A stretch of 64,000 nt of DNA from Flavobacteriales bacterium (GTDB lineage Bacteria > Bacteroidota > Bacteroidia > Flavobacteriales_E > Vicingaceae), in NCBI GenBank assembly GCA_018608405.1, contig JABAZP010000032.1, forward strand, positions 17,956 through 81,955. Reading direction: 5' to 3'. This document shows, piece by piece, positions 14,012 to 39,173 of this stretch. How positions within the stretch are numbered: position 1 is the stretch's first letter; the number at the start of each line of letters is the position of its first letter. Under the pieces are notes generated by a model. The model was given only the letters and a program-made list of their open reading frames with translations, was not told where the DNA came from and did no database searches. The position numbers and the translations under genes were made by a program.

Positions 14012-14242
14012 GTGTCGAGCGAATTAAACTTTTTAAGTTTTACATCAAAGGAGTTTCAAGTTGAAGTCGGATCATTGAGTTTGCAAACTGAGTATAGGAA
14101 TTTGCCAAACTGGAGTTCATTGAATGCGTTAATCTTTATTTCTGCTATTAATGATGAATATAATGTCTTGATATCTTCTACTGACCTATCTATGTCAAAA
14201 ACACTTGGCGATTTGTTCACTATTATTCAAAGCTCAAATTAG
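14012..14242 (+). CDS. Acyl/peptidyl carrier protein-like (phosphopantetheine-binding)
   Basis: 76-aa ORF from the track. Ser35/Ser36 in YRNLPNWSSLNALIFISAINDEY sit at the position and W-x-S-L context of carrier-protein attachment serines. The stop overlaps the GTG start of the KAS III gene. The start is uncertain: I could not reproduce the first ~10 track codons when reading the bases by eye. Confidence 0.55.
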   Translation: MSSELNFLSFTSKEFQVEVGSLSLQTEYRNLPNWSSLNALIFISAINDEYNVLISSTDLSMSKTLGDLFTIIQSSN

Positions 14243-15237
14243 TGGCATTTTCGAAAATAATTGGAACTAAAATCAGTGGGATTGCGACAGTGTTGTCTTC
14301 TAACAAAGAGGACAACCTAGAACTTCCTGCGCTGAACCTAAAGCAAAAAGAAGAATTAATAAAACACACAGGCATTAGGTTTAGGCATGTCGCTAAAGAG
14401 AAGGCGCAATCGGGCAAGGTTCTTTTTAAGTCGGGAATTGAGAAACTTTTGGAGTTATTGACATGGGATAAGAGTTCTGTAGACATATTGATAATTGTAA
14501 CCCAAACTGCACAATCGCCAATTCCATCTTTGGCCTGTCAAATTCACGGAGAAATGAATTTTCCTACCACTACTTTGGCATACGATATTAATTCAGGTTG
14601 TTCTGGTTTTGTATATGGCTTGCACACCGCAAGTCAATTATTAGCTTCTTTAGATCAAGAAGGCAAAAGAGCTATTTTGTGCTGTGGTGATGTATCAACA
14701 AGTTTAACTGAAGAAGGTGATATGGCTGTGAAGCCTATATTTTCTGACGCAGTTTCAGCTATTGGAATAGAGGGTTGTAAAAACAGGGAAAGCTTCTTTA
14801 ATTTAGAAACTTTTGGGAAAGGGCAAAATGCCATTTCTATGGTAAAAAATGAAACTGGAGACTGGATGCGAATGGACGGAGTCGATGTGTTTAATTATGC
14901 TGTTAAGTATGTACCAAATAATATTAAAAAGTTACTTGAAAAATATTCTAATGAGAGCAATACTCCCAAAATGTATGTTTTTCATCAAGCGAACCTTTTA
15001 ATTAATAATTCAATAATGAAAGCAATAGGAGCAGATAAGGGTGAGGTGCCAAATTCATTGTATGAATATGGAAATACTGCATCCGCAAGCATTCCTCTTA
15101 CGTTAAGCCTTAATTGTAAACCTGAGAACTCCAATTGGGCTGTACTCTCAGGTTTTGGAGTTGGCTTTTCAATTGCTTCGGCCTTGGTAAAAATTGATGC
15201 AGTGAAAATAGCGAAGCCTACATTTATTAATATCTAA
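14242..15237 (+). CDS. 3-oxoacyl-ACP synthase III (FabH-like KAS III)
   Basis: Cys-His-Asn triad contexts are present: DINSGCSGFVYG, VFHQANLLI, YGNTASASIPL. Length 331 aa. Coupled to the upstream ACP-like ORF. Confidence 0.85.
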   Translation: MAFSKIIGTKISGIATVLSSNKEDNLELPALNLKQKEELIKHTGIRFRHVAKEKAQSGKVLFKSGIEKLLELLTWDKSSVDILIIVTQTAQSPIPSLACQIHGEMNFPTTTLAYDINSGCSGFVYGLHTASQLLASLDQEGKRAILCCGDVSTSLTEEGDMAVKPIFSDAVSAIGIEGCKNRESFFNLETFGKGQNAISMVKNETGDWMRMDGVDVFNYAVKYVPNNIKKLLEKYSNESNTPKMYVFHQANLLINNSIMKAIGADKGEVPNSLYEYGNTASASIPLTLSLNCKPENSNWAVLSGFGVGFSIASALVKIDAVKIAKPTFINI

Positions 15238-15245
15238 TTGAGAAA

Positions 15246-16160
15246 ATGGTTGAATTAGATATAGTTATACCGCTTTATAATTCGAAGAAAATACTCCCAA
15301 AATTGGTGAGGCGCTTAAATGAATGGAAAAACTCCATCGATTTTAGTTTTAATGTAATTTTTGTTGAAGATGGAGATGTTGAAAGCAGCAAAAGTATTTT
15401 AGTAAAAGCAGCTGCAATTTTTCCTCATCGATTTGTAAGGTTGTCAAAAAATTATGGACAGCATACTGCCACTGCAATTGGGTTAAGTTATTGCACGGCT
15501 CCACTTATCGCGACAATTGATGATGACTTACAGCACGATCCATTTGAAATTGAGAAGTTAATTACTTGTTTAAATGAAACTGAATCAGATTTGGTATTTG
15601 GAACTTTTGAGAAGAAGGAACACTCGTTTTTTAGAAATTTGGGAAGCACAGTATTGCAATTGATTTTTAGCTATGAAAAAGTTGATTACTCATCTATCAC
15701 TGCTTTTCGTTTAATGCGTTCAAATGTAGCAGCCTCTTTTAAGAAGAGTAAAAAACCAATTGTATTTATTGAAGAGTACTTGCTCAGAAATGCCAGTAAG
15801 AAGTCAACGTGTATTGTGAACCATTCAAAAAGAGAAGGCGAATCCTCTAGTTATTCTTTTTGGAGTTTATTCAAATTTGCATTAAAAATAATAGTTTTTC
15901 ATTCTTCATTTTTATTGAATTTTATAATTCGATTTGGAGTTGTAACAGCCGTTACTTGTTTTTTTGTAGGGTGTTATTTTATCTATAAAAAAGTTGTTTA
16001 TGATTCTAATGAGGGGTTCTCAGCTCTAATTGTTTCTATCTTTTTTTCCACAGGAATTCTACTAATGACGTTAGGGGTGATTGGGGAATACATTCGAAGA
16101 ATTTGGATCAATCAAAATGAGTTAGACCAAATTATGATTGCAGAAGATGAGCAGCTATGA
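15246..16160 (+). CDS. GT2 polyprenyl-phosphate glycosyltransferase (GtrB/ArnC/DPM1-like)
   Basis: GT-A N-terminus (DIVIPLYNS, DDDLQHDP), two C-terminal TM helices and the family-typical LGVIGEYIRRI motif. Confidence 0.85.
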   Translation: MVELDIVIPLYNSKKILPKLVRRLNEWKNSIDFSFNVIFVEDGDVESSKSILVKAAAIFPHRFVRLSKNYGQHTATAIGLSYCTAPLIATIDDDLQHDPFEIEKLITCLNETESDLVFGTFEKKEHSFFRNLGSTVLQLIFSYEKVDYSSITAFRLMRSNVAASFKKSKKPIVFIEEYLLRNASKKSTCIVNHSKREGESSSYSFWSLFKFALKIIVFHSSFLLNFIIRFGVVTAVTCFFVGCYFIYKKVVYDSNEGFSALIVSIFFSTGILLMTLGVIGEYIRRIWINQNELDQIMIAEDEQL

Positions 16161-16678
16161 TTGAAAAATTTGGAATTTGCTTAGAACCTTTAACACTTGA
16201 GACAGCGATGCTTGTTCGAGAGTGGAGAAATTCTCCAAAGGTTAATCACTATATGGATTTTAAAGCGCAAATTACCAAAGAGCAACAAGAAAAGTGGTTT
16301 GAAACGACGTTAACATCTGCCAATGTTTATTTTACAATCCGAAAAGGCTCAACTCCAATAGGGTTAATTCATCTAGATCGGTTTGATGCCAAAAAAAAAA
16401 CGGCTTATGCAGGTCTTTTTATTGGCAACGAAGAATTTGAAGGAACAGGCATTGCTTTTAAAGCTTCAGTTGCGCTTTTGGAATATGCTTTTGAAGAGCT
16501 GAAGTTGGAAATGGTTTATGCAAAAGTGCATGAAGATAATACAGTAGCCATTGCTTATAATAAAAACCTAGGATTTGAAGATGATGGAGAAGAGTCTGGC
16601 CCCTTTCTAAGACTAAAAATTCACTCTATTGCCTTTTATACTAGGCGGACTTATTTGCTGAATTTATTAGCGTTGTAA
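16157..16678 (+). CDS. GNAT family N-acetyltransferase (PseH/RimL-like)
   Basis: LEPLTLETAMLVREWRNSPKVNHYM start typical of PseH-like GNATs. Acetyl-CoA loop EFEGTGIAFKA. ATGA overlap with the GT2 gene. Contains an A10 tract at 16391..16400. Confidence 0.75.
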   Translation: MIEKFGICLEPLTLETAMLVREWRNSPKVNHYMDFKAQITKEQQEKWFETTLTSANVYFTIRKGSTPIGLIHLDRFDAKKKTAYAGLFIGNEEFEGTGIAFKASVALLEYAFEELKLEMVYAKVHEDNTVAIAYNKNLGFEDDGEESGPFLRLKIHSIAFYTRRTYLLNLLAL

Positions 16679-17575
16679 AATCCGCCATCGAATTTCGTCG
16701 AGTTTTAATTTTGCCTTTTGCAAGCTGCTTTTTCCTTCCAAGTTTAAATAGTCTACTGTAAAAATACTCGGATTTAATATCCATTTAATTAATCGGGTAA
16801 GCTTTTTTTCGTCCTCGTATGGAAATTTGGTTATGTCAAATTTGTTTTTTATTTCCGGATGAATTTTAGTGAAGTATGTCGTCTTATTGTGAAAATAATA
16901 GTCGTCTTTTTTAAATCCTAGAACATTCATTCCAATATGAAAGCTAAGATGCTTGTCGAATATTATTTTTGGATTTTCTGCCACCGCTAATAAATTATGT
17001 AAAAGGCTAACTTCTAAAAAAGGAACCCCAATACAAATACCGTTTAAATGCAATTTTTCAAGTAAGGGTTGCTTGAATATAAAACAGTCAAAACCAGGGT
17101 GAGATTTGCCTAGTTCTGCATACATTTTTGGAAGTTGCTCAACAGCGTTATATTTATTTTCTAATCTTCGGCGGTTAATTGTAATAAAATCGTGGCCCTC
17201 TTTTATGTATTCGTGAATAGTATTATAGAAAAAGGGCATTAATGCAATGTCTACATTGGTGTAAATGATGTAATCATTGTTCTCAATTTCGTTGGTTTTC
17301 AAGAGGATATCTTTTATTAGAGGGAGCTTACGTCCGTTTAATTTGGAATTCACTTCTTTTATAGACCTTTTTAAGTTGCTTAACTTTTTGAAATAAGTAG
17401 GAACTACATCCTCATCTTCGGAGTATTGCGTGGAGCATAGAGTTAGTTCGAAATCAGAAAGGTTAGCCTGCTCTTTTGCCACCTTCATGCTTTCGAAAGT
17501 GATAAGTTGAGCCGAAAACAATTCGTTACTTTTAGCTACTTTTACTGGGTTTACAATGTGGGTAATCTTTAACAA
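16667..17575 (-). CDS. Hypothetical protein, possibly GT-A-like; the only minus-strand gene in the locus
   Basis: 302-aa ORF with no motif I can name confidently. YIIYTNVDIALMPFF...FITINRR resembles a nucleotide-sugar transferase core. Its 3' end overlaps the GNAT gene convergently by 12 bp. Confidence 0.5.
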   Translation of the reverse strand: MLKITHIVNPVKVAKSNELFSAQLITFESMKVAKEQANLSDFELTLCSTQYSEDEDVVPTYFKKLSNLKRSIKEVNSKLNGRKLPLIKDILLKTNEIENNDYIIYTNVDIALMPFFYNTIHEYIKEGHDFITINRRRLENKYNAVEQLPKMYAELGKSHPGFDCFIFKQPLLEKLHLNGICIGVPFLEVSLLHNLLAVAENPKIIFDKHLSFHIGMNVLGFKKDDYYFHNKTTYFTKIHPEIKNKFDITKFPYEDEKKLTRLIKWILNPSIFTVDYLNLEGKSSLQKAKLKLDEIRWRILQR

Positions 17576-17667
17576 TAGCGTCGATTTAAATACTTTTTTG
17601 GTAAAAGTAAATTTTATAAATCAAATTAAACAACCCCAATTTTAGGTAGCAAGAACCGATTTTAAAC

Positions 17668-18492
17668 ATGCATACTAGAAAGTCAACTATCTACACTTCT
17701 GGTCGTGATTCGTTAAAAACTGCGATCATAAAAGTATGGGAGCATAAGAATTTGATATGGGTTTTTGCAAAAAGAGACATTCAGGTAAAATATTCACAAA
17801 CGTATCTCGGAATAATATGGAGTTTTTTTAAACCGCTGTTAAGTTTATTTATTTACGTTCTTTTTTTCGGAATTGTTTTAAAGTGGCAGACAGGAGAAGT
17901 TCCTTATGCCGTTTATGTTTTGAGCGGGTTAATAGGTTGGAATTTATTTAGCTATATAGTCAATAACGGGGTGGTATCTGTACATGAATCTTCAGATATT
18001 ATAAAGAAAATTTACTTTCCAAAAAGCATTTTGCCTTTTTCTAAAATGTTAGTAGGTATTGTAGATGCATTAATAAGTTTGGTGTTACTACTCCCTCTTA
18101 TGCTCTATTATGAAGTTGGAATGACTTGGAAAATAATTTTTATGCCTCTGGTTTTATTATTTAATGCAATTTGTGGCTTGTCCATTTCATTTTTAATAGC
18201 TGCAATCTCTATAAAAAAGAGAGATATTCTGCAAGTATTGCCTTTTTTAATTCACATGGCGATTTGGTTCACACCCGTATTCCTGTCTACAGATGTTTTT
18301 CCGGAACAACTTCACTTCTTTTTTTCAATAAACCCAATAGCAAACGTTATAGAATTGTGGCGCTGGGTTTTGTTTGATGGAGTTACTTTTCAGTGGGTTT
18401 GGGTGATTAACTTTTTTACTACTGCTATTTTACTTTTAATTGGATTTTATTTTTACACCTATCGAGAAGATAAATTTGCTGATTTTATATGA
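17668..18492 (+). CDS. wzm: ABC-2 type polysaccharide export permease (Wzm/TagG/KpsM family)
   Basis: FAKRDIQVKYSQTYLGIIWSFFKPLL N-terminal signature and six hydrophobic helices. Its stop overlaps the start of the ATPase gene. Confidence 0.85.
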   Translation: MHTRKSTIYTSGRDSLKTAIIKVWEHKNLIWVFAKRDIQVKYSQTYLGIIWSFFKPLLSLFIYVLFFGIVLKWQTGEVPYAVYVLSGLIGWNLFSYIVNNGVVSVHESSDIIKKIYFPKSILPFSKMLVGIVDALISLVLLLPLMLYYEVGMTWKIIFMPLVLLFNAICGLSISFLIAAISIKKRDILQVLPFLIHMAIWFTPVFLSTDVFPEQLHFFFSINPIANVIELWRWVLFDGVTFQWVWVINFFTTAILLLIGFYFYTYREDKFADFI

Positions 18493-19772
18493 ATAATCAA
18501 GTTGCCATATCAGTATCAGGTCTTTCAAAGAGTTACCCTTTGCGCAGTTCGGGTATTGGGGTTAATCAAAACAGAAAGGAAGTTTTTCATGCTTTAAAAA
18601 ACATCTCGTTTGACATCAATAAGGGTGAAAATATAGTAATTATTGGAGCAAACGGAAGCGGTAAAAGTACTTTGTTAAAAATTTTAGCAGGTGTTACAAA
18701 ACCAGGCTCAGGTATTGTCCAAATTCGAGGGAAAGTTGCTAGTATCTTAGATATTGGAGCAGGTTTTCATCCAGAATTAAATGGGCTGGAAAATATTTAT
18801 TTAAATGGGCAACTTTTAGGATTTACAAAAGCAGATATTAAACCAAAAGTTGAAGCAATAATTGAATTTAGTGGAATTGGTCATTTTATAAATGAACCAG
18901 TAAAAAGCTATTCAAGTGGAATGTTTTTACGTTTGGCTTTTAGTATTGTAGTTCATCTAGATTTTGATGTTTACCTGTTTGATGAAGTGCTGAGTGTTGG
19001 GGATGCTGAATTTTTGAAAAAGACTCAACAGTTTATTGCCGAGTTGAATAGTGATCAAAATAGAACAATTGTTTCAGTAACCCATAACATGAACGAAGTT
19101 CATTTCGATAATAAAGTATTTGTGTTAGATCAAGGGAGTTTAGAGACTGGAGATCCTAAATTTCTTTTAGAAAAATATTTCCAAGAAAAAACCATTGACA
19201 AAAATTTTGCAAATTTGGTCACTCATAATTCTAGAGTTAAACAATTTGAAATTGAAACAAATAGTAAGTATATAGAACTACTTGACGTTGAAATATGGCA
19301 AGAAGAGGGAATAAAGAACTTTAGGACAGATTTACCAATTGAAATAAGTTTTACATACAAGAAAAAGTCGAATGAGTTTTATATTGACCCAATGGTTTCA
19401 ATTTCTAATTTCTCAGGAAGAATTATATTAACCACTGCACCATTTGTTAAGGGAGATTTTGACTCAAGTTTAGGCCCCGGGGTAGTAAAGCAAGCAGTTG
19501 TTTTTCCTGCATATTTCTTTAATTCTCAAATTTATTTTATCAGTGTATATTTCATCAGAAACGCTCAAGTTATTTTTAATAATATCTTCGACGAAGAAAC
19601 GGACAATTTAGATGAAATAAAGAAAACTCAAGTTTTCTTGAGCCTTACTAATTTTATTCCTTTCAAATTATTATTGTCAGGCGCCAATACCAATGCTGAC
19701 ATTTCAAACATTGATATAAGTGGGGCTTTATTGGCGGGTTTACATTGGGAAGAAAAGGAGGAAGCTACATGA
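18489..19772 (+). CDS. wzt: Polysaccharide ABC transporter ATP-binding protein with ~190-aa C-terminal extension (Wzt-like)
   Basis: Walker A GANGSGKST, signature YSSGMFLRLAFS, Walker B VYLFDEVLSVGD, H-loop VTHNM. Residues ~235-427 form an extra beta-rich domain where Wzt proteins carry their glycan-terminus-binding module. Confidence 0.9.
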   Translation: MNNQVAISVSGLSKSYPLRSSGIGVNQNRKEVFHALKNISFDINKGENIVIIGANGSGKSTLLKILAGVTKPGSGIVQIRGKVASILDIGAGFHPELNGLENIYLNGQLLGFTKADIKPKVEAIIEFSGIGHFINEPVKSYSSGMFLRLAFSIVVHLDFDVYLFDEVLSVGDAEFLKKTQQFIAELNSDQNRTIVSVTHNMNEVHFDNKVFVLDQGSLETGDPKFLLEKYFQEKTIDKNFANLVTHNSRVKQFEIETNSKYIELLDVEIWQEEGIKNFRTDLPIEISFTYKKKSNEFYIDPMVSISNFSGRIILTTAPFVKGDFDSSLGPGVVKQAVVFPAYFFNSQIYFISVYFIRNAQVIFNNIFDEETDNLDEIKKTQVFLSLTNFIPFKLLLSGANTNADISNIDISGALLAGLHWEEKEEAT

Positions 19773-20473
19773 ATTTAGAATTCACAAAATCTATTCTTGA
19801 TTATATAAAAAGTCCTTCAGACGTAGATAGCTTAACTAAGTTTGAAGAGCTGATTTATAATAAAGAAAGGCTTACGTTGATTGAAAGAAGCTTTTACGAT
19901 AAGTTCATTGTTTTTCTAATTTACAACGATATATCAAAAGTACAAGGAGATGTGGTTAATGTTGGAATATTTAGAGGAGGGTTTTCTCTTTTCTTAAAAG
20001 CTTTCTTTTCAGACTTGCACATTACCTGTCATTTTTGGTTATTCGATTCCTTCATAGGGTTTGAGAACTTGAACCCTGATAGTAAATTAGAGAAGGAGTC
20101 TTTATTGTGGTTTAATTCATACCTAGAAAAAATAAAATTTCCATCTCATCAATCAGTTTCAGAGCTTTTTGAAAAATTTAATATGACTGAAAGTCTTTCA
20201 ATTATTGAAGGGGATATAGAAGAAACATACCGACACTTTGACGGGGATAGTATAAGTATTCTGCATATAGATGTTGATTTTTATTCGCCAACATATAATA
20301 GTTTAAAATTCTTCTATGATTTGGTTTCTATCGGCGGCATAATTGTAATTGATGATTATTATTTAGAGCAAACCAATTGTAAAGAAGCAGTGGATAGTTT
20401 TAGAATAGAAAAAAATATCCAATCACCGTTGATTAAATTGGGTAACTACCAAGTAGGGTGGGTAAAAAGTTAA
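19769..20473 (+). CDS. TylF/MycF-family class I SAM-dependent O-methyltransferase (copy 1)
   Basis: VVNVGIFRGGFSLFL (SAM loop) and LHIDVDFYSPTYNSLKFFYDLVSIGGIIVIDDYY. ATG 19769 forms an ATGA overlap with the wzt stop. The track start 19745 lies inside wzt. Confidence 0.8.
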   Translation: MNLEFTKSILDYIKSPSDVDSLTKFEELIYNKERLTLIERSFYDKFIVFLIYNDISKVQGDVVNVGIFRGGFSLFLKAFFSDLHITCHFWLFDSFIGFENLNPDSKLEKESLLWFNSYLEKIKFPSHQSVSELFEKFNMTESLSIIEGDIEETYRHFDGDSISILHIDVDFYSPTYNSLKFFYDLVSIGGIIVIDDYYLEQTNCKEAVDSFRIEKNIQSPLIKLGNYQVGWVKS

Positions 20474-20474
20474 T

Positions 20475-21341
20475 ATGCAAAAGTTAAAAGACGAATTATC
20501 TAAAATTTATACATCTAAGGTGTTTCAAGATTTTTTGATCAGAAATAATCGTTTAGTTCAATACCATTCAGAGTCTTATAAAGAGTATTTTGGATTCAAT
20601 ATTAATCGTGGGAAAGCTGAAAACATAAAATTTTATATAACTTATTTAAGGCACCTAAGCGAAAAGGAGCTGGTTCAGTTATTAGGATTTAATCCTCCCA
20701 TAAATCTAAAAAAGGCATTCCAAGAGAGGAGTAATAATTATGACCCTAAAAAAGGTGGTACGGGGACAACTTTTACATTTAAATATGATGTTGGAGCAAA
20801 TCGTTTTACAATTGGGGTCTATTTTTTAATAAATAATAGTAAAGGGTGGAATATAGATGATTATCCGTTTTTAGTTAATTATAAAGAACAAACAGGTGAA
20901 GGTGTCGAGTTAAGCAGTGAGTACTTGTTGTATTATGAGTTTGACACTAACCACGAAATGTTAAATACAAGAATCCACTGCTACTCAAAATCCAAAAAAT
21001 TATTCAGTTTTTTAGAAAAAAAGTATGATCAAGTTATACAGCCTTTTACGCATGAGTTAGAAATTTATTTTGATAGAAAATCAATGAATAAGTCTAAGGT
21101 AAATTTATTAATGGACTTAGTAATGTTCAGAGGGCCATATCAAGAGACTAGGTCAGGGAGAGAAATTTCTAATTTTATCAAACGCAACTCCTTTTTAAAT
21201 AAGTTTTTACCTGTTTGCCCAGGTTTTTATAGTGATAGTAGTATTCTGTCAATTTACTTCATGAACCTTACGGCGGAAATAGATAGTCCAATTCACACCT
21301 TTGAAAATTTATTTAATGTATTAAATTATGAATATCAGTAG
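20475..21341 (+). CDS. Hypothetical 288-aa protein with five-fold beta-hairpin periodicity (see findings)
   Basis: Compactly packed ORF (2-bp gap upstream, 14-bp overlap downstream). No signal peptide, no TM helix, no named motif. Confidence 0.6.
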   Translation: MQKLKDELSKIYTSKVFQDFLIRNNRLVQYHSESYKEYFGFNINRGKAENIKFYITYLRHLSEKELVQLLGFNPPINLKKAFQERSNNYDPKKGGTGTTFTFKYDVGANRFTIGVYFLINNSKGWNIDDYPFLVNYKEQTGEGVELSSEYLLYYEFDTNHEMLNTRIHCYSKSKKLFSFLEKKYDQVIQPFTHELEIYFDRKSMNKSKVNLLMDLVMFRGPYQETRSGREISNFIKRNSFLNKFLPVCPGFYSDSSILSIYFMNLTAEIDSPIHTFENLFNVLNYEYQ

Positions 21342-31381: not shown

Positions 31382-32560
31382 ATGAGCAATGAAGTTTATG
31401 TTTTTGTAGTTTGTGGAAGCAGCGAGCATATCGATACGCTGCAACTTTCATTAAAAGCGCTCCGATCTTTCTCTAAAAAAGATATTCTTGTTTTAACAGA
31501 TAAAACAAGAAATGATATAGAAATCCTTCACGATGCTATTATCGACGTTCAAACACCAAAAGAGTATAACCATCATCAAGCGAGTATTTATTTGAAAACA
31601 GGAATTCACCAATTTCTTCCCAAAGGTAATTTGTATTGCTATTTGGATACAGATATAATTGCCTTGGATCATTCTTGCGACGAAATTTTCAAAGAGTATA
31701 TTTCACCGATTAGGTTTGCACCTGATCATTGTAAAATAAAAGCATTTAGTGCTTATGCAATTAATTGCGGGTGTATAGATAAATGTTCCGAAGACAGAGA
31801 AGCATATTTTAAGAGTGTTGAAAAGCACGATAAGAATTCAGAGCTAACAGGCACAGTTGCCCGGACCGCTCAAAAGAAGGTTGAGGATTGGTATGGGGAA
31901 CTCCAAAAGTCAATTCTAACAAAGGGTTTTTATACTTTTCGTTATTACATGAGTTTTCCAAAATTTTGGTTAGACAAAGACATTTATTTTGATAAAAAAA
32001 GAAAATTGTGGTCAACAAAAGATGGAGAAATTGTAAAGTATGAGATAGATATAAAAAGCATTGCGAAAGAGGCCAATTTGAAATATACCCTTTGGTTCAA
32101 TGAGTGGAGAAACAAAAAAGGGGAGAATATATTTAAAACCGATTGCAATCATTTAACCGAGTCAATTCACAATACTTTTCAAGTTGATGTGAAAGAGAAA
32201 AATTGGCAACACTGGAATGGCGGTGTATTTCTTTTCGACGATGCTAGTCATAAATTTTTGTCTGAATGGCACAAAAAGAGCGTTCAAATATTCAATAATC
32301 CCAATTGGAAGACTAGAGACCAGGGAACCTTAATTGCAACGGTTTGGGAGTTTGCTTTGCAAGACCATCCAACATTATCAAAAGAATGGAATTTTATTGC
32401 AGATTTTCACAACAACCAATTAGTGGTTAGCAAAGAGACGGATGAAATGTCAGATGACCTATTTAAGTCAACGTACAGGCCAAAATTTGTTCATGTATTT
32501 CATGAATGGGGAAATGAAAAGTGGGCAGTTTGGAATTGGATAAAATCGAAGATTGTGTAA
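31382..32560 (+). CDS. Hypothetical protein, possible nucleotide-diphospho-sugar transferase fold
   Basis: VYVFVVCGSSEHI...LYCYLDTDIIAL (DxD-like DTD) resembles GT8-type cores. Otherwise unrecognised. Confidence 0.5.
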   Translation: MSNEVYVFVVCGSSEHIDTLQLSLKALRSFSKKDILVLTDKTRNDIEILHDAIIDVQTPKEYNHHQASIYLKTGIHQFLPKGNLYCYLDTDIIALDHSCDEIFKEYISPIRFAPDHCKIKAFSAYAINCGCIDKCSEDREAYFKSVEKHDKNSELTGTVARTAQKKVEDWYGELQKSILTKGFYTFRYYMSFPKFWLDKDIYFDKKRKLWSTKDGEIVKYEIDIKSIAKEANLKYTLWFNEWRNKKGENIFKTDCNHLTESIHNTFQVDVKEKNWQHWNGGVFLFDDASHKFLSEWHKKSVQIFNNPNWKTRDQGTLIATVWEFALQDHPTLSKEWNFIADFHNNQLVVSKETDEMSDDLFKSTYRPKFVHVFHEWGNEKWAVWNWIKSKIV

Positions 32561-33004
32561 ATGGGTAATAGGTACAAGAAATTTTTAGAATGGGGAATTT
32601 CAACTTTTGGAGTTGCACTGCTCTATATTATAGGAGTGCTATTATTTAATGAGACCCATCCATTTTCGCGGTTTCCCATGTACAGTAATTTCCCAAATTG
32701 GTCGTATAGTTTTTATTTAACTGACGAAGCCAATGAGATTATTCCATTTTCCAGTTTAGAAACAACCGGAAGCTCTGTTGGACACTTATATGGTAGTGTA
32801 TCTGATGAATTAAATATTCCATACGGAAGCTTTAGAGAATCTGAAGAAGAATTGCAACAAATTGGCGATCGAATGATGTTTGTTTTATTAGAATCAAATG
32901 AGTTAAAATATAAATATATCAACCTGTACCGGAAAGGGTTTTATTACCAAAACGATTCTATCCACGATTTAACAGTTTTAATGACCTCTTATGAACGTCA
33001 TTAA
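32561..33004 (+). CDS. Small single-pass membrane protein, unknown function
   Basis: 147 aa with one N-terminal TM (FGVALLYIIGVLLF). The start abuts the stop of the upstream gene, and the ORF overlaps the next gene by 14 bp. Confidence 0.5.
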   Translation: MGNRYKKFLEWGISTFGVALLYIIGVLLFNETHPFSRFPMYSNFPNWSYSFYLTDEANEIIPFSSLETTGSSVGHLYGSVSDELNIPYGSFRESEEELQQIGDRMMFVLLESNELKYKYINLYRKGFYYQNDSIHDLTVLMTSYERH

Positions 33005-33872
33005 AAATATAAGAATAAGAGGGCTAGATAAAGAATGGATTTTTTTAAAGATCCCATTAATTTGTTTTTGGTTTGGCATTTTTCGTCATATTTTATCTAA
33101 AAATTACAAGGTGCCAATACCTTCGGGAATTTGTAAAATAGTTAATTGCGCTAATCTTATAGAAGGCCATGGGCTATTCTTTATGATCGTGGCAAGCTCT
33201 CTTTTATGCATCATGTATTTACTTGACTTTAAAATGAAATGGACCACTTTGGGTTTGTTTTCTTTGTCAGTTATTGTTTTCACAAGTGAGGATTCTAGCG
33301 GAATCTTAAATCGCAGCGGAACTTTCTCTTTTATATTCCTTGCCCAGTCATTTGCATATTGGATCAATGGGTCGAATCTTTTAAAATTAAAATACTCCAG
33401 AATTCAATATTCGATACAAGCAGTTGTTGTTGGTTATTTTCTTTCAGGTTGCTCTAAACTATTAGATTCGGGTTTAAGTTGGCCTTCAGATGGATCTAGG
33501 ATCACCCTTCAAGTATTAAAGTCATTTTATTACCATTATTATACAACACTTGACAGCACAGAGCTTGTAAAAGCCTATGAAATTGTACAATTTTTAACAG
33601 AATCTCAAAACATTTTGGTTGTTCTTTTAGCTGGTTCTTTAACATTAGAATTGTTTGCATTAACAGCAGCTGTTAATAAGAGTTATGCAAGATTTTATGG
33701 TATTGCTTTGCTTCTTATGCATATAGGAATCTATTATTTTATGGATATACTCATAGTGTCATTTGCTGTTCCGATGGTTTTTGTAATGATTAATCCATTT
33801 TATTTAGCTGTATTTTTATACGACAAAATGTTGAAGAAACCAACATTTCCACATACGTTAAAATCAATGTAA
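32991..33872 (+). CDS. Polytopic membrane protein, unknown function (weak HTTM/DoxX-like feel)
   Basis: 293 aa with ~7 hydrophobic helices. VVGYFLSGCSKLLDSGLSW resembles the G..K(L) helix of DoxX/HTTM-type proteins, but I cannot verify this. Confidence 0.5.
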   Translation: MNVIKNIRIRGLDKEWIFLKIPLICFWFGIFRHILSKNYKVPIPSGICKIVNCANLIEGHGLFFMIVASSLLCIMYLLDFKMKWTTLGLFSLSVIVFTSEDSSGILNRSGTFSFIFLAQSFAYWINGSNLLKLKYSRIQYSIQAVVVGYFLSGCSKLLDSGLSWPSDGSRITLQVLKSFYYHYYTTLDSTELVKAYEIVQFLTESQNILVVLLAGSLTLELFALTAAVNKSYARFYGIALLLMHIGIYYFMDILIVSFAVPMVFVMINPFYLAVFLYDKMLKKPTFPHTLKSM

Positions 33873-33876: not shown

Positions 33877-34743
33877 TTGGCTATTTTTTGCACCATATCA
33901 ACTCAATCTCATCTCTTTAAAACGTATGCTTTAGCAGATAGCATACAACAATTTGGAGGTCAATTAAAAGTGTTGCTTGTGGATTCAGATGAAGTAAAGA
34001 ATGTTGATAGTATTCCGTCGAATATTGAATTTCATCACTTAGGACAAATAAGTTCTGAACGAATAGAACAAACCAGTAGAATCTATAAAAAAGACAAGCT
34101 TCGTTGGGCTTTAAAACCTGCGTATTTATTGTATTTACTTCCTAATTATCACGCATTAATTTATGTAGATAACGATGTCTTTTTTTATAATGATTTCAAT
34201 TTTTTGTTTGAAGAATTGCAAATCTCTGACGTGCTTTTAACACCTCACTTTTATCCTAGTTCTCCTAAAAACGAGCAAACGTGGTTAGAAGCAAACTTCA
34301 GACTCGGAATGTACAATGCGGGTTTTATTGGGGTGAATGAAAATGCTAAAAATGCTTTAGAATGGTGGTCGGACTGTTGCTTGTACGAAATGAGGAGATC
34401 CTATTGGAGAGGACTTTTTGATGATCAAAAGTATTTAGATTTACTACCGGTGTTATTTGAAAATGTGAAAATTATTAAGAATAGAGGATGCAATTTTGCA
34501 GGATGGAATTCACAGTTAAACATTGATATTAAGCAGATTGTTTTTGTTCATTTTAATTCTTTTACGTCCAAAATATTTAATGAAGAAACCAATAAATATT
34601 TCCCATTAATTAAAAATTACACAAAGCAGCTCAAATTATATAACCCTACTTTTAAGAACAGTAGTAGAGGCTTAGATTTATTCAAATTACAAAATGGCCT
34701 TTATTTTATAAAATGGAAACTGGCACGATTGCTTAATAAATAG
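33877..34743 (+). CDS. GT-A glycosyltransferase (GT8 / nucleotide-diphospho-sugar transferase-like)
   Basis: IFCTISTQSHLFKTYALADS..., LIYVDNDVFFYNDF (DxD), YNAGFIGVN. TTG start per the track, so the start is uncertain. Confidence 0.65.
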   Translation: MAIFCTISTQSHLFKTYALADSIQQFGGQLKVLLVDSDEVKNVDSIPSNIEFHHLGQISSERIEQTSRIYKKDKLRWALKPAYLLYLLPNYHALIYVDNDVFFYNDFNFLFEELQISDVLLTPHFYPSSPKNEQTWLEANFRLGMYNAGFIGVNENAKNALEWWSDCCLYEMRRSYWRGLFDDQKYLDLLPVLFENVKIIKNRGCNFAGWNSQLNIDIKQIVFVHFNSFTSKIFNEETNKYFPLIKNYTKQLKLYNPTFKNSSRGLDLFKLQNGLYFIKWKLARLLNK

Positions 34744-34750
34744 TATAGTA

Positions 34751-35605
34751 ATGAGATTAAAGTCAACAGAGTTACAGTCTGAATTTGATGAAATTGGAGC
34801 AATCAAAATACCCAAATTCTTACAAAAAGATGCACTCGAGGAAATAAAAGAATTATACAATGAATTAGGTTTAATAGACCTAAAACATACCTATACTAAC
34901 GTAAAAGATAAAAGTGCGGAATTCAATAATAAGGTAAATCAAATAATTACTGGTTTAAGTAAGGAGTCTATCGCAAATCATTTCATGGATTATCAAATTA
35001 GTGGAGGAGCTTTTTTAATAAAAGGAATTGGGGAAGAAAGTCATGCGATGTTGCATCAAGATTGGAACGTGGTAGATGAAAGCAAATTTCAATCAGCAGT
35101 AATTTTTTGTGCTATTCACGACATCGATGAGAGAAATGGCTGTATTCAAGTGTTAAAAGGAAGCCATAAATGGTTTAATAATATTAGAGGGCTCAATAAT
35201 CCATCACCAATAATGGAGTTTAGCAAGGCAAAAAAAGGTTTAATATCTTTTCCGCTAAAAGCCGGAGATGCTATTGTGTTCAGGCATAGCGTAATTCATG
35301 GCTCGAAACCTAATTTTACCAATCAAAATCGAATTGCAACGATGGTAAGTATTGCATCTAAAGATGCTGATTATATTAATTATGTAAAAGAGGAAAATGA
35401 ATTTAAAGTTCTTAAGGTAAGTGCGAATTTTTTCAATCAAGATTTTTCAAGACTATGGTCCAATAAAAGTATTGATGAGATTGTTTTGGATCGGTTTAAA
35501 ATTAAAGACGGAATGAGTTTAGTAGCATCGGATTATCTTGAAGCGTATAATAATAGATACCCCTTAAGTACTTTAGATAAAGTTAAAAAGATGTTTAATC
35601 GCTAA
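34751..35605 (+). CDS. PhyH-family Fe(II)/2-oxoglutarate dioxygenase (paralog A)
   Basis: HxD in MLHQDWNVVDE and distal His in FRHSVIHGSKPN. 284 aa. Confidence 0.8.
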   Translation: MRLKSTELQSEFDEIGAIKIPKFLQKDALEEIKELYNELGLIDLKHTYTNVKDKSAEFNNKVNQIITGLSKESIANHFMDYQISGGAFLIKGIGEESHAMLHQDWNVVDESKFQSAVIFCAIHDIDERNGCIQVLKGSHKWFNNIRGLNNPSPIMEFSKAKKGLISFPLKAGDAIVFRHSVIHGSKPNFTNQNRIATMVSIASKDADYINYVKEENEFKVLKVSANFFNQDFSRLWSNKSIDEIVLDRFKIKDGMSLVASDYLEAYNNRYPLSTLDKVKKMFNR

Positions 35606-35837: not shown

Positions 35838-36695
35838 ATGAAATTGAAATCAGCGGAGCTAGAAAAGGAATTCCAAGAAGTTGGTGCGATTCGGATACCT
35901 AACTTTTTGAATAACGAGGATCTGCTGCGAATAAAGGAATTATACAATGAGCTTGGACTTTCTGATTTGAATGGAATTTATAGCAATGTCAACAATAAAA
36001 GTTCAGAGTACAATACAAAGGTAGATGTGATTTTTCAAGAAATTTACAAACCGTCAATTGAAAAGTACTTTGAAGGTCATCAAATTGGTGGAGGCGCTTT
36101 TTTGATAAAAGGAACTGGCAATGAGAGCCATTCTTCCTTACACCAAGATTGGAACATTGTAGATGAGAAGAAGTATCAATCTGCAGCAATTTTCTGTCCA
36201 ATTGAAGATGTTAATGAGAAAAATGGATGCTTACAAGTGCTAAAAGGCAGTCATAAATGGTTTCAAAATATTCGATCTTTTCACACCCCAACTCCATTTT
36301 TTAATTTTAATCAAGTTGAAAAGGGGCTAGTTGCTTTTCCTGCTAAGGCCGGCGATGCAATTGTTTTTCGACACAATGTTATTCATGGTTCGAAGCCAAA
36401 TTTAACAGCCAATATTAGAGTTGCAGCGATGGTTAGCGTAGCTTCTAAGTCTGCTAATTATTTGCATTATATGAAAGAAGGTCAGAAGTTTAAGGTACTG
36501 AAAGCGGACAATGATTTTTACAATAAGGAACTATCTAAATTATACTCAAAAAACAATATTAATGTAGAGGAAATAGATCTGATTGAAATTGAACCAGGTA
36601 TGGTGTTAGAGTTTTCTGATTTTGAGCAAAAATACAAACAAGAATTTCCAGATTCGTTTTTATGTCGGATAGGTAAATTGTTCAAAAGAGGCTAA
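35838..36695 (+). CDS. PhyH-family Fe(II)/2-oxoglutarate dioxygenase (paralog B)
   Basis: SLHQDWNIVDE and FRHNVIHGSKPN. 36 of the first 60 residues are identical to paralog A when counted by eye. Confidence 0.8.
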   Translation: MKLKSAELEKEFQEVGAIRIPNFLNNEDLLRIKELYNELGLSDLNGIYSNVNNKSSEYNTKVDVIFQEIYKPSIEKYFEGHQIGGGAFLIKGTGNESHSSLHQDWNIVDEKKYQSAAIFCPIEDVNEKNGCLQVLKGSHKWFQNIRSFHTPTPFFNFNQVEKGLVAFPAKAGDAIVFRHNVIHGSKPNLTANIRVAAMVSVASKSANYLHYMKEGQKFKVLKADNDFYNKELSKLYSKNNINVEEIDLIEIEPGMVLEFSDFEQKYKQEFPDSFLCRIGKLFKRG

Positions 36696-39173
36696 ATGAA
36701 AAATTGGAACTTCCTCTTCCTTTTTGTAGTGACACTTTTGGTTTTTGGGAATACTTTGTCCAATGGATATAATATGGATGATGAGTTAGTAACCAAAAAT
36801 CATCCGCTAACGAACCCTAATACAAAAGCTAGTTTAAGTGCCATTTTCTCTTCTTCTTATCAGGACGAAGAAGGGTTAAAATCAGGATACAGACCGGTAA
36901 CTATTGCTAGTTTTTATTTGGAGCATGCTTTCTTCGGTGAATCGGTTAGGGTAAGTCACACAGTCAATTTGATTTTGTATTTAGCAATTGTATTGTTGTT
37001 ATATCTATTCTTAGCCCTAATCTTTAGAGACACAAATCCATATATTCTGCTGTTTATTGCACTACTGTTTAGTTTGCATCCTGTTCATTCTGAGGTTATC
37101 GCAAGTTTGAAAAATAGAGATGAATTGTTGAGTTTGATCTTTTTTCTCTTGTCGGCGATATCTGTAATCAAATGGATCAGCAGACAGAATCCCATTTATT
37201 TGGCGTCAACAATAGTGCTCGTTTCACTTTCAATTTTATCGAAAAAAAGCACATTGCCGATTATCGCTTTACTTCCCATTCTTCTTTTGGTTAACCAAAA
37301 TCTACAAGTTTCGAAATTTATAAAAATTGGTTTGGCCTTTTCTATTCCAATCGGGCTGTTTGCTTTTAACCTTCAATTAATTCCTAGCTTAGTCACTTTT
37401 ACGGTTTTAAGTGTATTCTATCTTATCGTTTTTTACCTTCCGATATTTTGGGAAAGTAAATCACTCCCCAAACCTAGTATATTCGAAGTCTTTATTCTAG
37501 TGTTAATTTTTTCAACTACCTTAATTGGAGTCTACTTTCAGCAGCTGTACTTGTTAATTGCAGGTCAATTACTATTATTGAATGGTGTTAAAAAGCACTT
37601 TAATGTGGTTCTGGTGTTAAGTGCAGTTATATCGCTAATGGGCTATTTCTCATTTTACAAGTCAGAAATATTAGTCTATTTAATCATGCTTTTATCGGCA
37701 GCGGCATTAGTTAATAGGCAGACGGTTAAATTGAACCCTAAATTTTTACTCGGGTTGCTACCACTGCTGCTTTTAATAGCCTATCAAAGGCAAGATTATA
37801 AACAAATATTGATTCAGTTAAGCCCACTGTTAATTTTTTCAACTGTCCTAATTCGTCTTTATATCCCGTTAGTTATATCGCTTATCGCGATAATGGTCAG
37901 CGCGTATTTCAATGCGTTAAGTTATTTCCAATTAGGGGTTTTGCTGTTTTCTATTTTGGCGCTATCTAAAACAGAGGTAATAAAATTGAAAAAGATATAT
38001 TTAGCCGGGTGGCTTTGCATAGCTTTTTTGTTCATCGGAGTAAGCTACCCCAACCAAGTAAATAAATTTCACTTTAATTCAAACGCAACTAGAATAATAG
38101 AAGACACTGAAGATTTCGAGTTAAAAGAAGGCAGAAAACTTGAATTTGTTGAAAATACATTGGTAGATCAGCACTCGTTGGACCAACGTTTTGCTACGGG
38201 ATTAGCAGTTATGGGATCTTATTTAGAGCTAATGTTTTTTCCTAAAGATCTTTCATTCTATTACGGATATGCAAAGATTAAAACGACAAACTTTAGGGAT
38301 TATAAAGTTTGGATAAGCCTACTATGTTATCTGTTATTGTTTTATTGCGCTATTTATTTTTTCAGAAGACAACCACTTATTTCAATCGGAGCCATTTGGT
38401 TTACCTCTAGCATTTTAATCTTTAGTAATCTGCCTGTTTTGGTTGCCGGTATGGTTGGAGAACGTTTAGCTTTTTCAGCTTCTGTGGGGTTTTGTATTAT
38501 GATTGGAGGAGTTTTCAATTGGATAAAACCTCAGTTCGAGTACAAAAAAATTCGAGGCTTGGAAGCTCTTTCTATAGTTGTATTACTCGCTTTGTCAGTA
38601 AGAACTTTCGTTCGAAACGAAAAATGGGAGTCCCCAACGATATTAATGCGCAACGATATTGAACATTTAGGTAATTCTGCACAGGCAAACTATCTTCTTG
38701 GTGTTCATTCCATAAAAGAGAACTTGAAAAGCTACAATGGTAGCGAGTCTGATTTGCAAAAAGTGAATGAATCGATTAATTATTTTAAAAAGGCTATTGA
38801 AATTTATCCGAAGCATTACAATTTTCATATTGCTTTGGGTAAGGCCTATTTGGTGTTAGATCAGAATAAACTTGCTAAAAAATCTTTTTTAATGGCGGAT
38901 GCGATAGTGCCAAATGCAGCAATCGGTTTATTTGAATTAGCGAAAGTTAGCTTTACTCTGAAAGATTACAATGAGGTGATTAACTATTCTAAATTGTACT
39001 TAGGGTGGAGTAAATCAAACCCGACAATGTTTGAGTTGGCTGCATTTAGCGCATACTATTTAAACGATTATTCATTAGCAATGCGTTTCACTGAAGAAGG
39101 ATTAAGGCAATTCCCTTCAAATCAAGTATTAATAGAATTGCTCTCTGATCTGCAAAGGCGAATGCAGAAGTAG
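36696..39173 (+). CDS. GT-C fold polyprenyl-phosphate-sugar-dependent glycosyltransferase (PMT/TMTC-like) with C-terminal TPR repeats
   Basis: 825 aa. The first-loop acidic motif NGYNMDDELVTKN follows TM1, as in PMT/TMTC/ArnT-type enzymes. There are >12 TM helices, and the last ~190 aa are TPR-like (AIEIYPKHYNFHIALGKAY..., ALRQFPSNQ). Confidence 0.75.
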   Translation: MKNWNFLFLFVVTLLVFGNTLSNGYNMDDELVTKNHPLTNPNTKASLSAIFSSSYQDEEGLKSGYRPVTIASFYLEHAFFGESVRVSHTVNLILYLAIVLLLYLFLALIFRDTNPYILLFIALLFSLHPVHSEVIASLKNRDELLSLIFFLLSAISVIKWISRQNPIYLASTIVLVSLSILSKKSTLPIIALLPILLLVNQNLQVSKFIKIGLAFSIPIGLFAFNLQLIPSLVTFTVLSVFYLIVFYLPIFWESKSLPKPSIFEVFILVLIFSTTLIGVYFQQLYLLIAGQLLLLNGVKKHFNVVLVLSAVISLMGYFSFYKSEILVYLIMLLSAAALVNRQTVKLNPKFLLGLLPLLLLIAYQRQDYKQILIQLSPLLIFSTVLIRLYIPLVISLIAIMVSAYFNALSYFQLGVLLFSILALSKTEVIKLKKIYLAGWLCIAFLFIGVSYPNQVNKFHFNSNATRIIEDTEDFELKEGRKLEFVENTLVDQHSLDQRFATGLAVMGSYLELMFFPKDLSFYYGYAKIKTTNFRDYKVWISLLCYLLLFYCAIYFFRRQPLISIGAIWFTSSILIFSNLPVLVAGMVGERLAFSASVGFCIMIGGVFNWIKPQFEYKKIRGLEALSIVVLLALSVRTFVRNEKWESPTILMRNDIEHLGNSAQANYLLGVHSIKENLKSYNGSESDLQKVNESINYFKKAIEIYPKHYNFHIALGKAYLVLDQNKLAKKSFLMADAIVPNAAIGLFELAKVSFTLKDYNEVINYSKLYLGWSKSNPTMFELAAFSAYYLNDYSLAMRFTEEGLRQFPSNQVLIELLSDLQRRMQK

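Follow-up and report, generated by a model that had tools for sequence, protein, structure and literature searches.

A conserved locus of uncultured Bacteroidota combines a predicted P450–terpene cyclase fusion with Wzm/Wzt-type export and glycan-building genes

We analysed a 64,000-nt stretch of a Vicingaceae contig (hereafter the window), in which 24 tightly packed genes, numbered g1–g24 in coordinate order, occupy positions 14012–39173 (Table 1). This locus is read here as a single conserved system that would make and export a terpenoid-bearing glycoconjugate of the envelope in Vicingaceae and related Flavobacteriales, a reading that we favour tentatively, at a probability of roughly 0.45. 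At its centre lie a cytochrome P450 fused to a predicted class II terpene cyclase (g14) and a UbiA-superfamily membrane prenyltransferase (g15), which in related genomes accompany a Wzm/Wzt-type ATP-binding cassette (ABC) transporter and glycosyltransferase (GT) genes. As 23 of the 24 genes share one direction, with junctions that overlap or abut, and the core is collinear in ~17 genomes, we treat the locus as a single unit.

A P450–cyclase fusion beside a UbiA prenyltransferase

The N-terminal domain of g14 has a Pfam P450 match and full-length alignments to NCBIfam P450 families over residues 7–381, and its nearest solved relatives include PikC, TamI, EryF and BioI. A database search returned ~60 full-length homologues of g14 (36–100% identity), every one of them from a metagenome bin of Bacteroidota. 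Among 19 aligned sequences (35–74% identity), the heme loop FGFGPHYCLG, the EXXR motif (ETLR) and the I-helix segment GGNETT are invariant or nearly so, giving the Cys-ligand loop FxxGxHxCxG, the EXXR motif and the I-helix acid–alcohol pair that define a P450. The C-terminal domain of ~330 aa has no Pfam match and drew nothing useful from PDB sequence searches; its N-V-P-x-D490-x-D492-D493 (DxDD), R-F-W and Y-F-T-S-K-D-R segments are invariant in the same 19 sequences. The AlphaFold2 (AF2) model of this domain (pLDDT 91.3, pTM 0.91) has the alpha/alpha-barrel beta-domain fold, and a Foldseek search against PDB placed the cyclase domain of the drimenol synthase AsDMS first (E 4e-9 to 6e-8, TM 0.69–0.73), with monodomain squalene–hopene cyclase (SHC)-like proteins, SHC, copalyl diphosphate synthases, MstE (6sbb), Rv3377c and a Streptomyces drimenyl diphosphate synthase ranked lower. 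The general acid of class II cyclases is the central Asp of the DxDD motif (PMC12232559). An earlier annotation of the window made from its letters alone, the sequence-only reading, had called the P450 partner cyclase-like, and it was right: on the modelled fold, g14 is a fusion of a P450 with a single-beta-domain protein predicted to act as a class II terpene cyclase. Assignment of g14 to the HAD–TCbeta drimenol synthases was ruled out because its N-terminal domain is a P450 and not a HAD-like phosphatase, so that only the cyclase fold is shared.

The PhyH-family dioxygenase gene g13 lies directly upstream of the P450–cyclase, or of its short-chain dehydrogenase/reductase (SDR), in most loci. 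In the related locus L027, P450 and cyclase are encoded by two neighbouring genes, and within the g14 family SDR–P450 fusions exist, with an SDR gene directly upstream of g14 in several relatives. The split genes and the fusions suggest that the P450, cyclase and SDR activities work together.

The g15 protein has at least eight transmembrane (TM) segments and the two Asp-rich motifs of the UbiA superfamily, and the residues of both (N60, D61, D64 and D68 of NDxxDxxxD; D178, D186 and D190 of the second) are invariant. A UbiA profile search returned a closed family of 31 matches. Against PDB, the g15 sequence alone gave nothing useful, while the profile matched chlorophyll synthase at E 2.6e-4 and the mycobacterial enzyme Rv3806c only at 0.19; nor was there a match to the NCBIfam DPPRS family. 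With these results, and with no phosphatase or MATE flippase gene, the candidate identity of g15 as an Rv3806c-like PPPRS was downgraded.

A divergent homogentisate-1,2-dioxygenase-like gene is located 7.7 kb downstream of the locus (46881–48041, minus strand), and a copy with 63% identity lies just downstream of the compact cluster of L023 (16808–18013). Homogentisate serves as the acceptor for some UbiA-family prenyltransferases; this neighbour may simply be conserved housekeeping synteny.

A collinear core in related genomes

Among genomes sampled at one per GTDB species, the locus was found 17 times, in every case in an uncultured member of the Bacteroidota: Vicingaceae, Flavobacteriales and Fluviicola, together with bins that carry the labels Flavobacterium, Chryseobacterium and Chitinophaga. 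Three contig look-ups supplied further contexts. A BLAST synteny matrix showed that a collinear core recurs in L007–L024, ~17 species-level genomes in which g14 is 36–71% identical; the core comprises g3, g4, the opposite-strand g5, g6/g7, g13, g14, g15, g17, g18, g21, g23 and g24. The acyl carrier protein (ACP) and KAS III genes, g16 and g19/g20 are present in subsets of the loci, and only the g8–g12 block (TylF methyltransferases, GNT-I-like GT-A domains and g9) is gained, lost or replaced among relatives, L007 having a CMAS-type methyltransferase in its place. The exact g14 protein was also found on 22 contigs from many metagenomes, with identical gene order in all of them. Clusters built at 90% identity around PolA and CysS of the window contain Vicingaceae proteins and Tara Oceans sequences, which marks the source as an uncultured marine member of Vicingaceae. 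Because L009 shares the giant upstream neighbour of the locus (70% identity), the block occupies the same chromosomal site in close relatives. Island-like presence and absence, which the sequence-only reading had raised, is thus not what the related genomes display, and a hypervariable O-antigen island would show the reverse. The same reading had set the locus apart from textbook O-antigen and capsule clusters, and this is supported: no close relative shows a characterised locus, all relatives being metagenome-assembled genomes whose proteins are named 'hypothetical' or 'cytochrome P450'.

The PhyH, P450–cyclase and UbiA genes form the most conserved part of the core, and the transporter travels with this terpenoid module. 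The product had been described from the sequence as a heavily tailored and perhaps prenylated glycoconjugate or glycolipid; such a glycoconjugate or glycolipid is still the most likely product, and 'perhaps prenylated' understates a module that is the best-kept part of the locus and accompanies the transporter.

Compact versions of the locus are informative in this respect. In L016, L023 and L024, the cluster consists of Wzm, Wzt, several PhyH genes, an SDR and the P450–cyclase (an SDR also preceding Wzm in some), followed by a UbiA–GT4 fusion, the UbiA part of which is homologous to g15 (E 1e-16) and stands in the same position. In P0320, another protein of the g15 clade, UbiA is fused to a GT32-like DXD domain. 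These two kinds of fusion indicate, as far as sequence can, that the UbiA enzyme shares its membrane substrate with a nucleotide-sugar glycosyltransferase. Furthermore, since the compact loci keep both the transporter and the terpenoid module though they lack AsnB, g18, g21 and the GT-C enzyme, Wzm/Wzt would belong with the module, and the gene content indicates that transporter and glycosyltransferase probably track it. In L016, a membrane protein with an LMF1 domain is encoded between the P450–cyclase and the UbiA–GT4 fusion. Besides its split P450 and cyclase genes, L027 (GCA_964529175.1, 1–18005) has two g18 paralogues and a carbamoyltransferase gene with SxtJ-like and DUF5989 small genes; genes for a Wzx-like flippase (PF01943) and for an NTP-transferase lie close by.

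Gene packing and missing functions

The open reading frame (ORF) list and a table of gene junctions reproduced the 24 genes and the single minus-strand exception (g5, 16667–17575) of the sequence-only reading, together with every overlap and abutment it had listed: 4-bp stop/start overlaps at 16157, 18489, 19769 and 24463, an 8-bp overlap at 23609, 14-bp overlaps at 21328 and 32991, and direct abutment at 32561 and 36696. Additional overlaps occur at 14242 (1 bp), 27512 (13 bp) and 28542 (23 bp), and the widest gaps inside the locus are 232 bp (g22/g23) and 92 bp (g5/g6, divergent). The GC content is 31–35% within the locus versus 36–39% in the flanks, which hold housekeeping genes (polA, cysS, gpsA) and cargo proteins of type IX secretion (T9SS). 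Scans for sigma-70 promoters and intrinsic terminators gave counts equal to those of shuffled controls and do not cover Bacteroidota promoters, so they are uninformative on the transcription unit.

Across the whole 64-kb window, ORFs of at least 150 aa matched no Pfam family of polyprenyl-phosphate phosphoglycosyltransferases (PGTs), Wzx, Wzy or OPX/PCP proteins, and none of nucleotide-sugar enzymes or sugar nucleotidyltransferases, in agreement with the absences noted from the sequence. For the sugar precursors this agreement is confined to the window, as the blocks of relatives contain a DegT aminotransferase gene before Wzm, NAD epimerase/dehydratase genes after AsnB, and an SDR gene. An NAD epimerase gene at 49244–50164 was rejected as a relocated orthologue of the relatives' cluster epimerase, the identity being only 19–25%. 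The lack of Wzx/Wzy and OPX/PCP is expected for any Wzm/Wzt-dependent pathway, and in such pathways the initiating WecA is often encoded outside the locus (PMC11127046), so that these absences carry little weight in themselves.

Export, periplasmic glycosylation and acyl genes

The transporter consists of an ABC-2 permease (g6) that adjoins a Wzt/TagH-type ATPase (g7), the arrangement of a Wzm/Wzt pair. The nearest solved structures of g7 are those of A. aeolicus Wzt (6amx/8dku, E ~1e-52, over residues 32–234 only), and TarH/TagH and the mycobacterial RfbE come next. Past residue 234, the C-terminal extension has no PDB sequence match and matched no solved carbohydrate-binding module (CBM).

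Periplasmic glycosylation is suggested by g3 and g24. Among NCBIfam families, Und-P-Ara4FN transferase (full length, 3.8e-34) and PgfS match g3 best, and the protein ends in two TM helices (223–241 and 261–279). The g24 protein has ~18 hydrophobic segments; PMT_2 is matched in 3 of 9 orthologues (best 8.4e-9) and TMTC_DUF1736 likewise in 3 of 9 (best 0.0072), with g24 of the window scoring 0.045. Across the 9 orthologues, D28-D29, G64-Y65-R66-P67 and H131/E133 within the LLFAVHPIHSE segment are invariant. Published TMTC motifs comprise M1/M2, that is, DD in the first extracytoplasmic loop and xYRP, and a FAVHPIH(T/S)E segment, which reads LLFAVHPIHT in TMTC3 (PMC7801869), and the invariant DD, GYRP and HPxHSE of g24 correspond to them. 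Taken together, the ArnC-like features of g3 and the PMT/TMTC hallmarks of g24 mark the two as a predicted polyprenyl-phosphate-sugar-dependent periplasmic glycosylation pair.

Among the remaining genes of this part, g1 is always partnered with a KAS III gene in relatives, and g2 is not a housekeeping FabH, because all NCBIfam FabH families score under their cutoffs. Although g5 has no credible match in Pfam, NCBIfam or PDB, its place and orientation are kept in 10 related loci at 45–76% identity.

Glycan assembly, tailoring and unassigned genes

The most conserved protein of the block is g18, whose family of 1085 clusters is named 'hypothetical' throughout and which has neither a Pfam match nor a PDB sequence match. 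Its AF2 model (pLDDT 87.7) retrieved WbbM, glycogenin, UGGT, LARGE1 and XXYLT1 in Foldseek (E 1.5e-5 to 7e-4), at low TM scores of 0.2–0.43 that we attribute to a large insertion. Together with an invariant D89-T-D91 (DxD), these fold matches identify g18 as a GT8-like GT-A enzyme with an insertion. The AsnB-type amidotransferase g17 is 58–81% identical across the loci, and extended relatives have a single g23-like PhyH gene at the position of the g22/g23 pair.

In the variable block, g12 is paralogous to the N-terminal half of g11 (31% identity). The GNT-I label of these two has no direct match behind it and derives from the PF03071 match of the g12 orthologue in L008, in conjunction with the identity between g11 and g12. 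The gene call of L001 starts g8 at ATG 19769. For g9, there is no match in Pfam, NCBIfam or PDB, and orthologues are confined to L008, L013 and L018 among the compared loci. The g16 product is possibly a lipoprotein, judging by its N-terminus.

The small protein g19 and the polytopic g20 are probably a functional pair, since they are fused in proteins of ~440 aa with the g19 part C-terminal. The g20 family has 316 representatives, none of which carries a Pfam domain in a HMMER scan, and its invariant residues are K20, R108, K156, K177, E220 and H244. In two further proteins, each of ~760 aa, the g20 part is combined with a weakly matched transglutaminase-like core. By sequence pattern, g9 might be an ABBA-type prenyltransferase and g20 an HTTM/LMF1-like protein, suspicions that we do not advance as assignments.

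In the list of domains given by the sequence-only reading, ACP, KAS III, GT2, GNAT, Wzm/Wzt, the three TylF and three PhyH domains, P450, UbiA, AsnB and TPR are borne out by Pfam or NCBIfam. Its other entries are softer: the GT8 assignment of g21 is sub-threshold (E 0.004), and those of GNT-I and GT-C draw on orthologues, motifs and paralogy. Of the six or more proteins it had called unassignable, g18 now has a fold-based assignment and five remain (g5, g9, g16, g19 and g20), which together with their orthologues gave only noise in Pfam at E up to 1. None of the unassigned ORFs matched a missing standard function.

Table 1. Genes of the locus (window coordinates) and UbiA–GT4 fusion genes of compact related loci (coordinates of each locus)
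Gene	Position	Strand	Assignment	Basis
g1	14012..14242	+	Probable acyl carrier protein, 76 aa	PF00550 exactly at cutoff, E 4.8e-4; weak NCBIfam ACP match
g2	14242..15237	+	KAS III-type ketosynthase	ACP_syn_III and ACP_syn_III_C (Pfam)
g3	15246..16160	+	ArnC/GtrB-like GT2, polyprenyl-phosphate sugar synthase type	PF00535
g4	16157..16678	+	GNAT N-acetyl/acyltransferase, PseH-like	Acetyltransf_3 2e-20; TIGR03585 PseH 1.5e-23, under its cutoff
g5	16667..17575	-	Conserved protein, 302 aa, no family match	
g6	17668..18492	+	Wzm, ABC-2 permease	PF01061; weak matches to galactan Wzm and VexB models
g7	18489..19772	+	Wzt ATPase, C-terminal extension of ~190 aa	PF00005; NCBIfam TagH and galactan Wzt
g8	19769..20473	+	TylF-family O-methyltransferase, variable block	PF05711 7e-30
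g9	20475..21341	+	288-aa protein, variable block, no family match	
g10	21328..22035	+	TylF-family O-methyltransferase, variable block	PF05711 1.6e-32; 32% identical to g8
g11	22039..23616	+	GT-A (GNT-I-like) N-domain fused to TylF C-domain	TylF 349–502; weak GT2 49–129
g12	23609..24466	+	GNT-I-like GT-A glycosyltransferase	L008 orthologue matches PF03071; no Pfam match of its own
g13	24463..25335	+	PhyH-family Fe(II)/2-oxoglutarate dioxygenase, core	PF05721 8e-19
g14	25368..27524	+	P450 (~7–381) fused to predicted single-domain class II terpene cyclase (~388–718)	
g15	27512..28564	+	UbiA-superfamily membrane prenyltransferase, orphan clade	PF01040
g16	28542..29528	+	Hydrophobic N-terminus ending in Cys (...LVIFVSC...), no family match; subset of loci	
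g17	29535..31319	+	AsnB-type glutamine-dependent amidotransferase, core	Asn_synthase 2.6e-74; TIGR01536 5e-145
g18	31382..32560	+	GT-A-fold, GT8-like glycosyltransferase with large insertion	AF2 model and Foldseek
g19	32561..33004	+	Small protein, one N-terminal TM helix (11–29), g20 partner	No family match
g20	32991..33872	+	Polytopic membrane protein, at least 4 TM helices, family without annotation	
g21	33877..34743	+	Probable GT8-like glycosyltransferase	PF01501 E 0.004, under cutoff; conserved in 11 loci
g22	34751..35605	+	PhyH dioxygenase, lineage-specific tandem duplicate of g23	PF05721; 55% identical to g23
g23	35838..36695	+	PhyH dioxygenase, core	PF05721 7.5e-22; in 13 loci
g24	36696..39173	+	GT-C glycosyltransferase, PMT/TMTC type, C-terminal TPR	TPR (Pfam); motifs
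UbiA–GT4, L016	14065-16329		UbiA–GT4 fusion, 754–758 aa	
UbiA–GT4, L023	12188-14464		UbiA–GT4 fusion, 754–758 aa	
UbiA–GT4, L024	~6303-8546		UbiA–GT4 fusion, 754–758 aa	

Proposed pathway and its alternatives

From the folds, motifs, gene order, conservation and fusions described above, we infer the following chemistry. The cyclase domain of g14 would protonate a prenyl chain at its terminal double bond, with D492 as the general acid, leading to cyclisation; its substrate may be a prenyl diphosphate or a prenyl group that has already been transferred. At the cytoplasmic face of the membrane, g15 would join the prenyl unit to an acceptor to give a lipid primer, and the terpenoid would be oxidised by the fused P450 and the PhyH enzymes g13, g22 and g23, with an SDR in relatives. 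The GT-A enzymes g18, g21, g12 and the N-domain of g11 would then assemble a glycan on the terpenoid lipid, which would replace priming of the WecA/WbaP type. The TylF enzymes would O-methylate this glycan, AsnB would amidate a carboxyl group, probably that of a uronic acid, and the ACP, KAS III and GNAT proteins would supply and attach an acyl group. The lipid-linked product would be carried across the inner membrane by Wzm/Wzt, and a polyprenyl-phosphate sugar made by g3 may be used by g24 for further glycosylation in the periplasm. A pathway of this kind would explain the missing PGT, the UbiA–GT fusions and the transporter that travels with the terpenoid genes. Its most specific form, a terpenoid-anchored lipoglycan with a cyclised and oxidised prenyl anchor, priming by Leloir glycosyltransferases without a PGT, and Wzm/Wzt export, is a possibility that we regard as doubtful.

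Several points weigh against the proposed system. It has no known product, and every organism that carries it is uncultured. To our knowledge, all characterised Wzm/Wzt and TagGH systems export polymers linked to polyprenyl diphosphate, and a PGT could be encoded outside the window. Within the locus there is no acceptor-synthesis or prenyl-diphosphate synthase gene that would serve the UbiA enzyme, and the P450 has neither a ferredoxin nor a reductase partner there. A terpenoid acting as anchor, as cap or as side decoration would look the same in sequence. Finally, L026 (GCA_020635995.1, 3042–8961) has three tandem g19/g20 pairs beside AsnB, g18, a Wzt-like ATPase, two TauD genes, a PhyH gene and one for an Asp/Arg hydroxylase. 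Both P450 and UbiA genes are absent within 10 kb of this g18/AsnB/g19–g20 sub-module, which suggests that the glycan sub-module can exist alone.

One alternative is a conventional polysaccharide linked to undecaprenyl diphosphate. A WecA/WbaP enzyme from another part of the genome would prime it, methylation would cap it and Wzm/Wzt would export it. UbiA and GT-C would add a pentofuranose side branch, for which Citrobacter youngae and mycobacteria provide the precedents, and the P450–cyclase and PhyH enzymes would tailor only something minor or unrelated. Indeed, WecA commonly lies outside such loci, and a UbiA-family PPPRS, a flippase and a GT-C enzyme make up a described three-component system (PMC11127046). 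However, the poorer match of the g15 profile to Rv3806c (E 0.19) than to chlorophyll synthase, the absence of a HAD/PAP2 phosphatase, a MATE flippase or a DprE-like epimerase among g1–g24, and a g24 of the PMT/TMTC type partnered by a hexose-type ArnC-like synthase do not fit that system. O-antigens with AsnB-type amidation and with N-acylation are known, the C-terminal extension of g7 resembles that of CBM-bearing Wzt proteins, the TylF enzymes could act as terminators, and relatives do have DegT and epimerase genes, but a conventional polysaccharide would leave an invariant, predicted class II cyclase fused to the P450 without a role and the compact loci, with transporter, terpenoid genes and UbiA–GT4 only, unexplained. 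We therefore consider it unlikely.

We also find it improbable that the locus is a secondary-metabolite cluster, in which a small terpene glycoside would be secreted through an ABC-2 exporter and no envelope polymer made. The transporter is nearer to O-antigen and teichoic-acid exporters than to DrrA, five or six glycosyltransferase domains are encoded, and the polyprenyl-phosphate-sugar synthase with the TPR-bearing GT-C enzyme would imply periplasmic glycosylation of an acceptor bound to the membrane or envelope; vertical conservation, with the same chromosomal site in L009, points the same way. Such a cluster would nonetheless account for a typical natural-product tailoring set (P450, three PhyH, TylF, KAS III and a stand-alone ACP), for a g14 P450 close to PikC, TamI, EryF and BioI, and for the resemblance of the compact loci to small biosynthetic clusters, and AsnB-type amidotransferases occur in phosphoglycolipid antibiotic pathways, e.g. 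that of moenomycin. Chance adjacency of two or three unrelated clusters (glycan, terpenoid and acyl module), to which the sub-module of L026 and the gain and loss of the TylF/GNT-I block would lend themselves, is very unlikely given a gene order kept in ~17 genomes even at 36–43% identity, overlapping stop/start codons that join modules (g12/g13 and g14/g15/g16), and UbiA–GT and P450–cyclase fusions that span the supposed module borders. A single system for a terpenoid-bearing envelope glycoconjugate is thus the reading that we prefer.

Neighbouring genes

Downstream of the locus, 67 bp after g24 and on the same strand, Pfam identifies pirin/quercetinase-like and nitroreductase genes (39241–40770), of which no homologues were found in the compared loci, most of which end near g24. 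Further on, at 41967–44565, a metallo-beta-lactamase-fold gene shares 20 bp with the start of a gene for an ATP-dependent DNA ligase (N, adenylation and OB domains); the two look like a ligase-associated repair pair with no relation to the locus.

Upstream, and divergent from the locus, is a giant T9SS cargo gene (4451–13834, minus strand; 3127 aa) with Laminin_G_3 domains and a Por_Secre_tail, followed by a second large T9SS cargo gene (981–4340, minus strand; 1119 aa), whose product carries five cadherin repeats plus a CHU_C signal. A 3830-aa CHU_C protein adjoins the cluster of L007. Cadherins are O-mannosylated by eukaryotic TMTC enzymes. Porphyromonas tethers its T9SS cargo by way of a glucuronamide sugar that is amidated and N-acylated (PMC7468200). 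A functional tie between the giant cargo proteins and the locus would be pure speculation, and a role of the glycolipid as surface anchor or partner for these adjoining adhesins is a speculative extension of the terpenoid-anchored model.

Comparison with known systems

The locus resembles ABC-dependent O-polysaccharide pathways (E. coli O9a, Citrobacter youngae O1/O2 and the A. aeolicus Wzm–Wzt) in its Wzm/Wzt transporter with an extended Wzt C-terminus, in possible chain-capping methyltransferases and a multi-domain GT–methyltransferase protein (g11), and in the lack of Wzx/Wzy and of a PGT in the locus (PMC11127046). Unlike these pathways, it has a core terpenoid module (P450–cyclase, UbiA and PhyH), its gene content is conserved across families instead of varying with serotype, its window contains no nucleotide-sugar genes, and the C-domain of g7 matches no solved CBM by sequence.

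With the drimenol synthase AsDMS of Aquimarina spongiae, g14 shares a single beta-domain class II cyclase fold, an Asp general-acid motif, fusion of the cyclase to a downstream-processing domain, and an origin in marine Bacteroidota. In contrast, the partner domain in g14 is a P450 and not a HAD phosphatase, the identity is 15–17%, the motif is DxDD instead of DxDT, and g14 belongs to a glycan-export locus whereas AsDMS belongs to a drimenol cluster with FPPS and AraC genes. The published marine drimenol clusters contain no P450s, glycosyltransferases or transporters. In MstE-type meroterpenoid pathways, UbiA adjoins a class II cyclase, as it does a predicted cyclase of ~330 aa here, and MstE is among the fold matches of g14; in our locus, however, no aromatic-acceptor biosynthesis gene was identified, and relatives have the UbiA clade joined to glycosyltransferases.

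A UbiA-family enzyme and a GT-C enzyme in a Wzm/Wzt locus also recall the three-component pentofuranose systems, which consist of a UbiA-type PPPRS, a MATE flippase and a GT136 GT-C enzyme, and mycobacterial decaprenylphosphoryl arabinose synthesis (PMC11127046). Our locus differs from these in having no phosphoribose phosphatase, MATE flippase or DprE-type epimerase, in a GT-C enzyme of the PMT/TMTC type, and in that g15 is not detectably nearer to Rv3806c than to other UbiA subfamilies. The full-length ArnC/GtrB-like polyprenyl-phosphate sugar synthase g3 is like those of the GtrA/GtrB/GtrX and ArnC/ArnT systems, although no flippase of the GtrA or ArnE/F type was recognised in the locus, and g24 is like the eukaryotic TMTC O-mannosyltransferases in its DD, xYRP and FAVHPIH(T/S)E motifs and its C-terminal TPR.

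In moenomycin-type phosphoglycolipid biosynthesis, a prenyl-lipid primer receives its sugars stepwise at the membrane, a uronic acid is amidated by an AsnB-type enzyme, and the product is methylated and leaves through an ABC exporter. The locus would share this logic. Moenomycin differs in that it uses a different prenyltransferase family, is not known to involve a cyclase or P450, and comes from Actinobacteria and not from Bacteroidota.

In the literature that we searched, there was nothing on this gene combination, on P450–class II cyclase fusions in Bacteroidetes, or on Vicingaceae clusters. The individual families are known; what is new relative to that literature is the P450–cyclase architecture, the UbiA–GT fusions and the conserved pairing of a terpenoid module with glycan assembly that depends on Wzm/Wzt. 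Should the terpenoid and glycan parts belong to a single molecule, the locus would be the first Wzm/Wzt-type system to handle a substrate assembled on, or bearing, a cyclic terpenoid made for that purpose, which would widen the range of what Wzm/Wzt transporters and ABC-dependent glycan assembly handle and add a new envelope component to abundant marine Flavobacteriales. Regardless of the model, the P450–class II cyclase fusions (~60 cluster representatives of full length), the UbiA–GT4 and UbiA–GT32-like fusions, the g18 family (1085 clusters) and the g19/g20 family (316 representatives) are uncharacterised architectures, for which the genomic context described here suggests directly testable functions.

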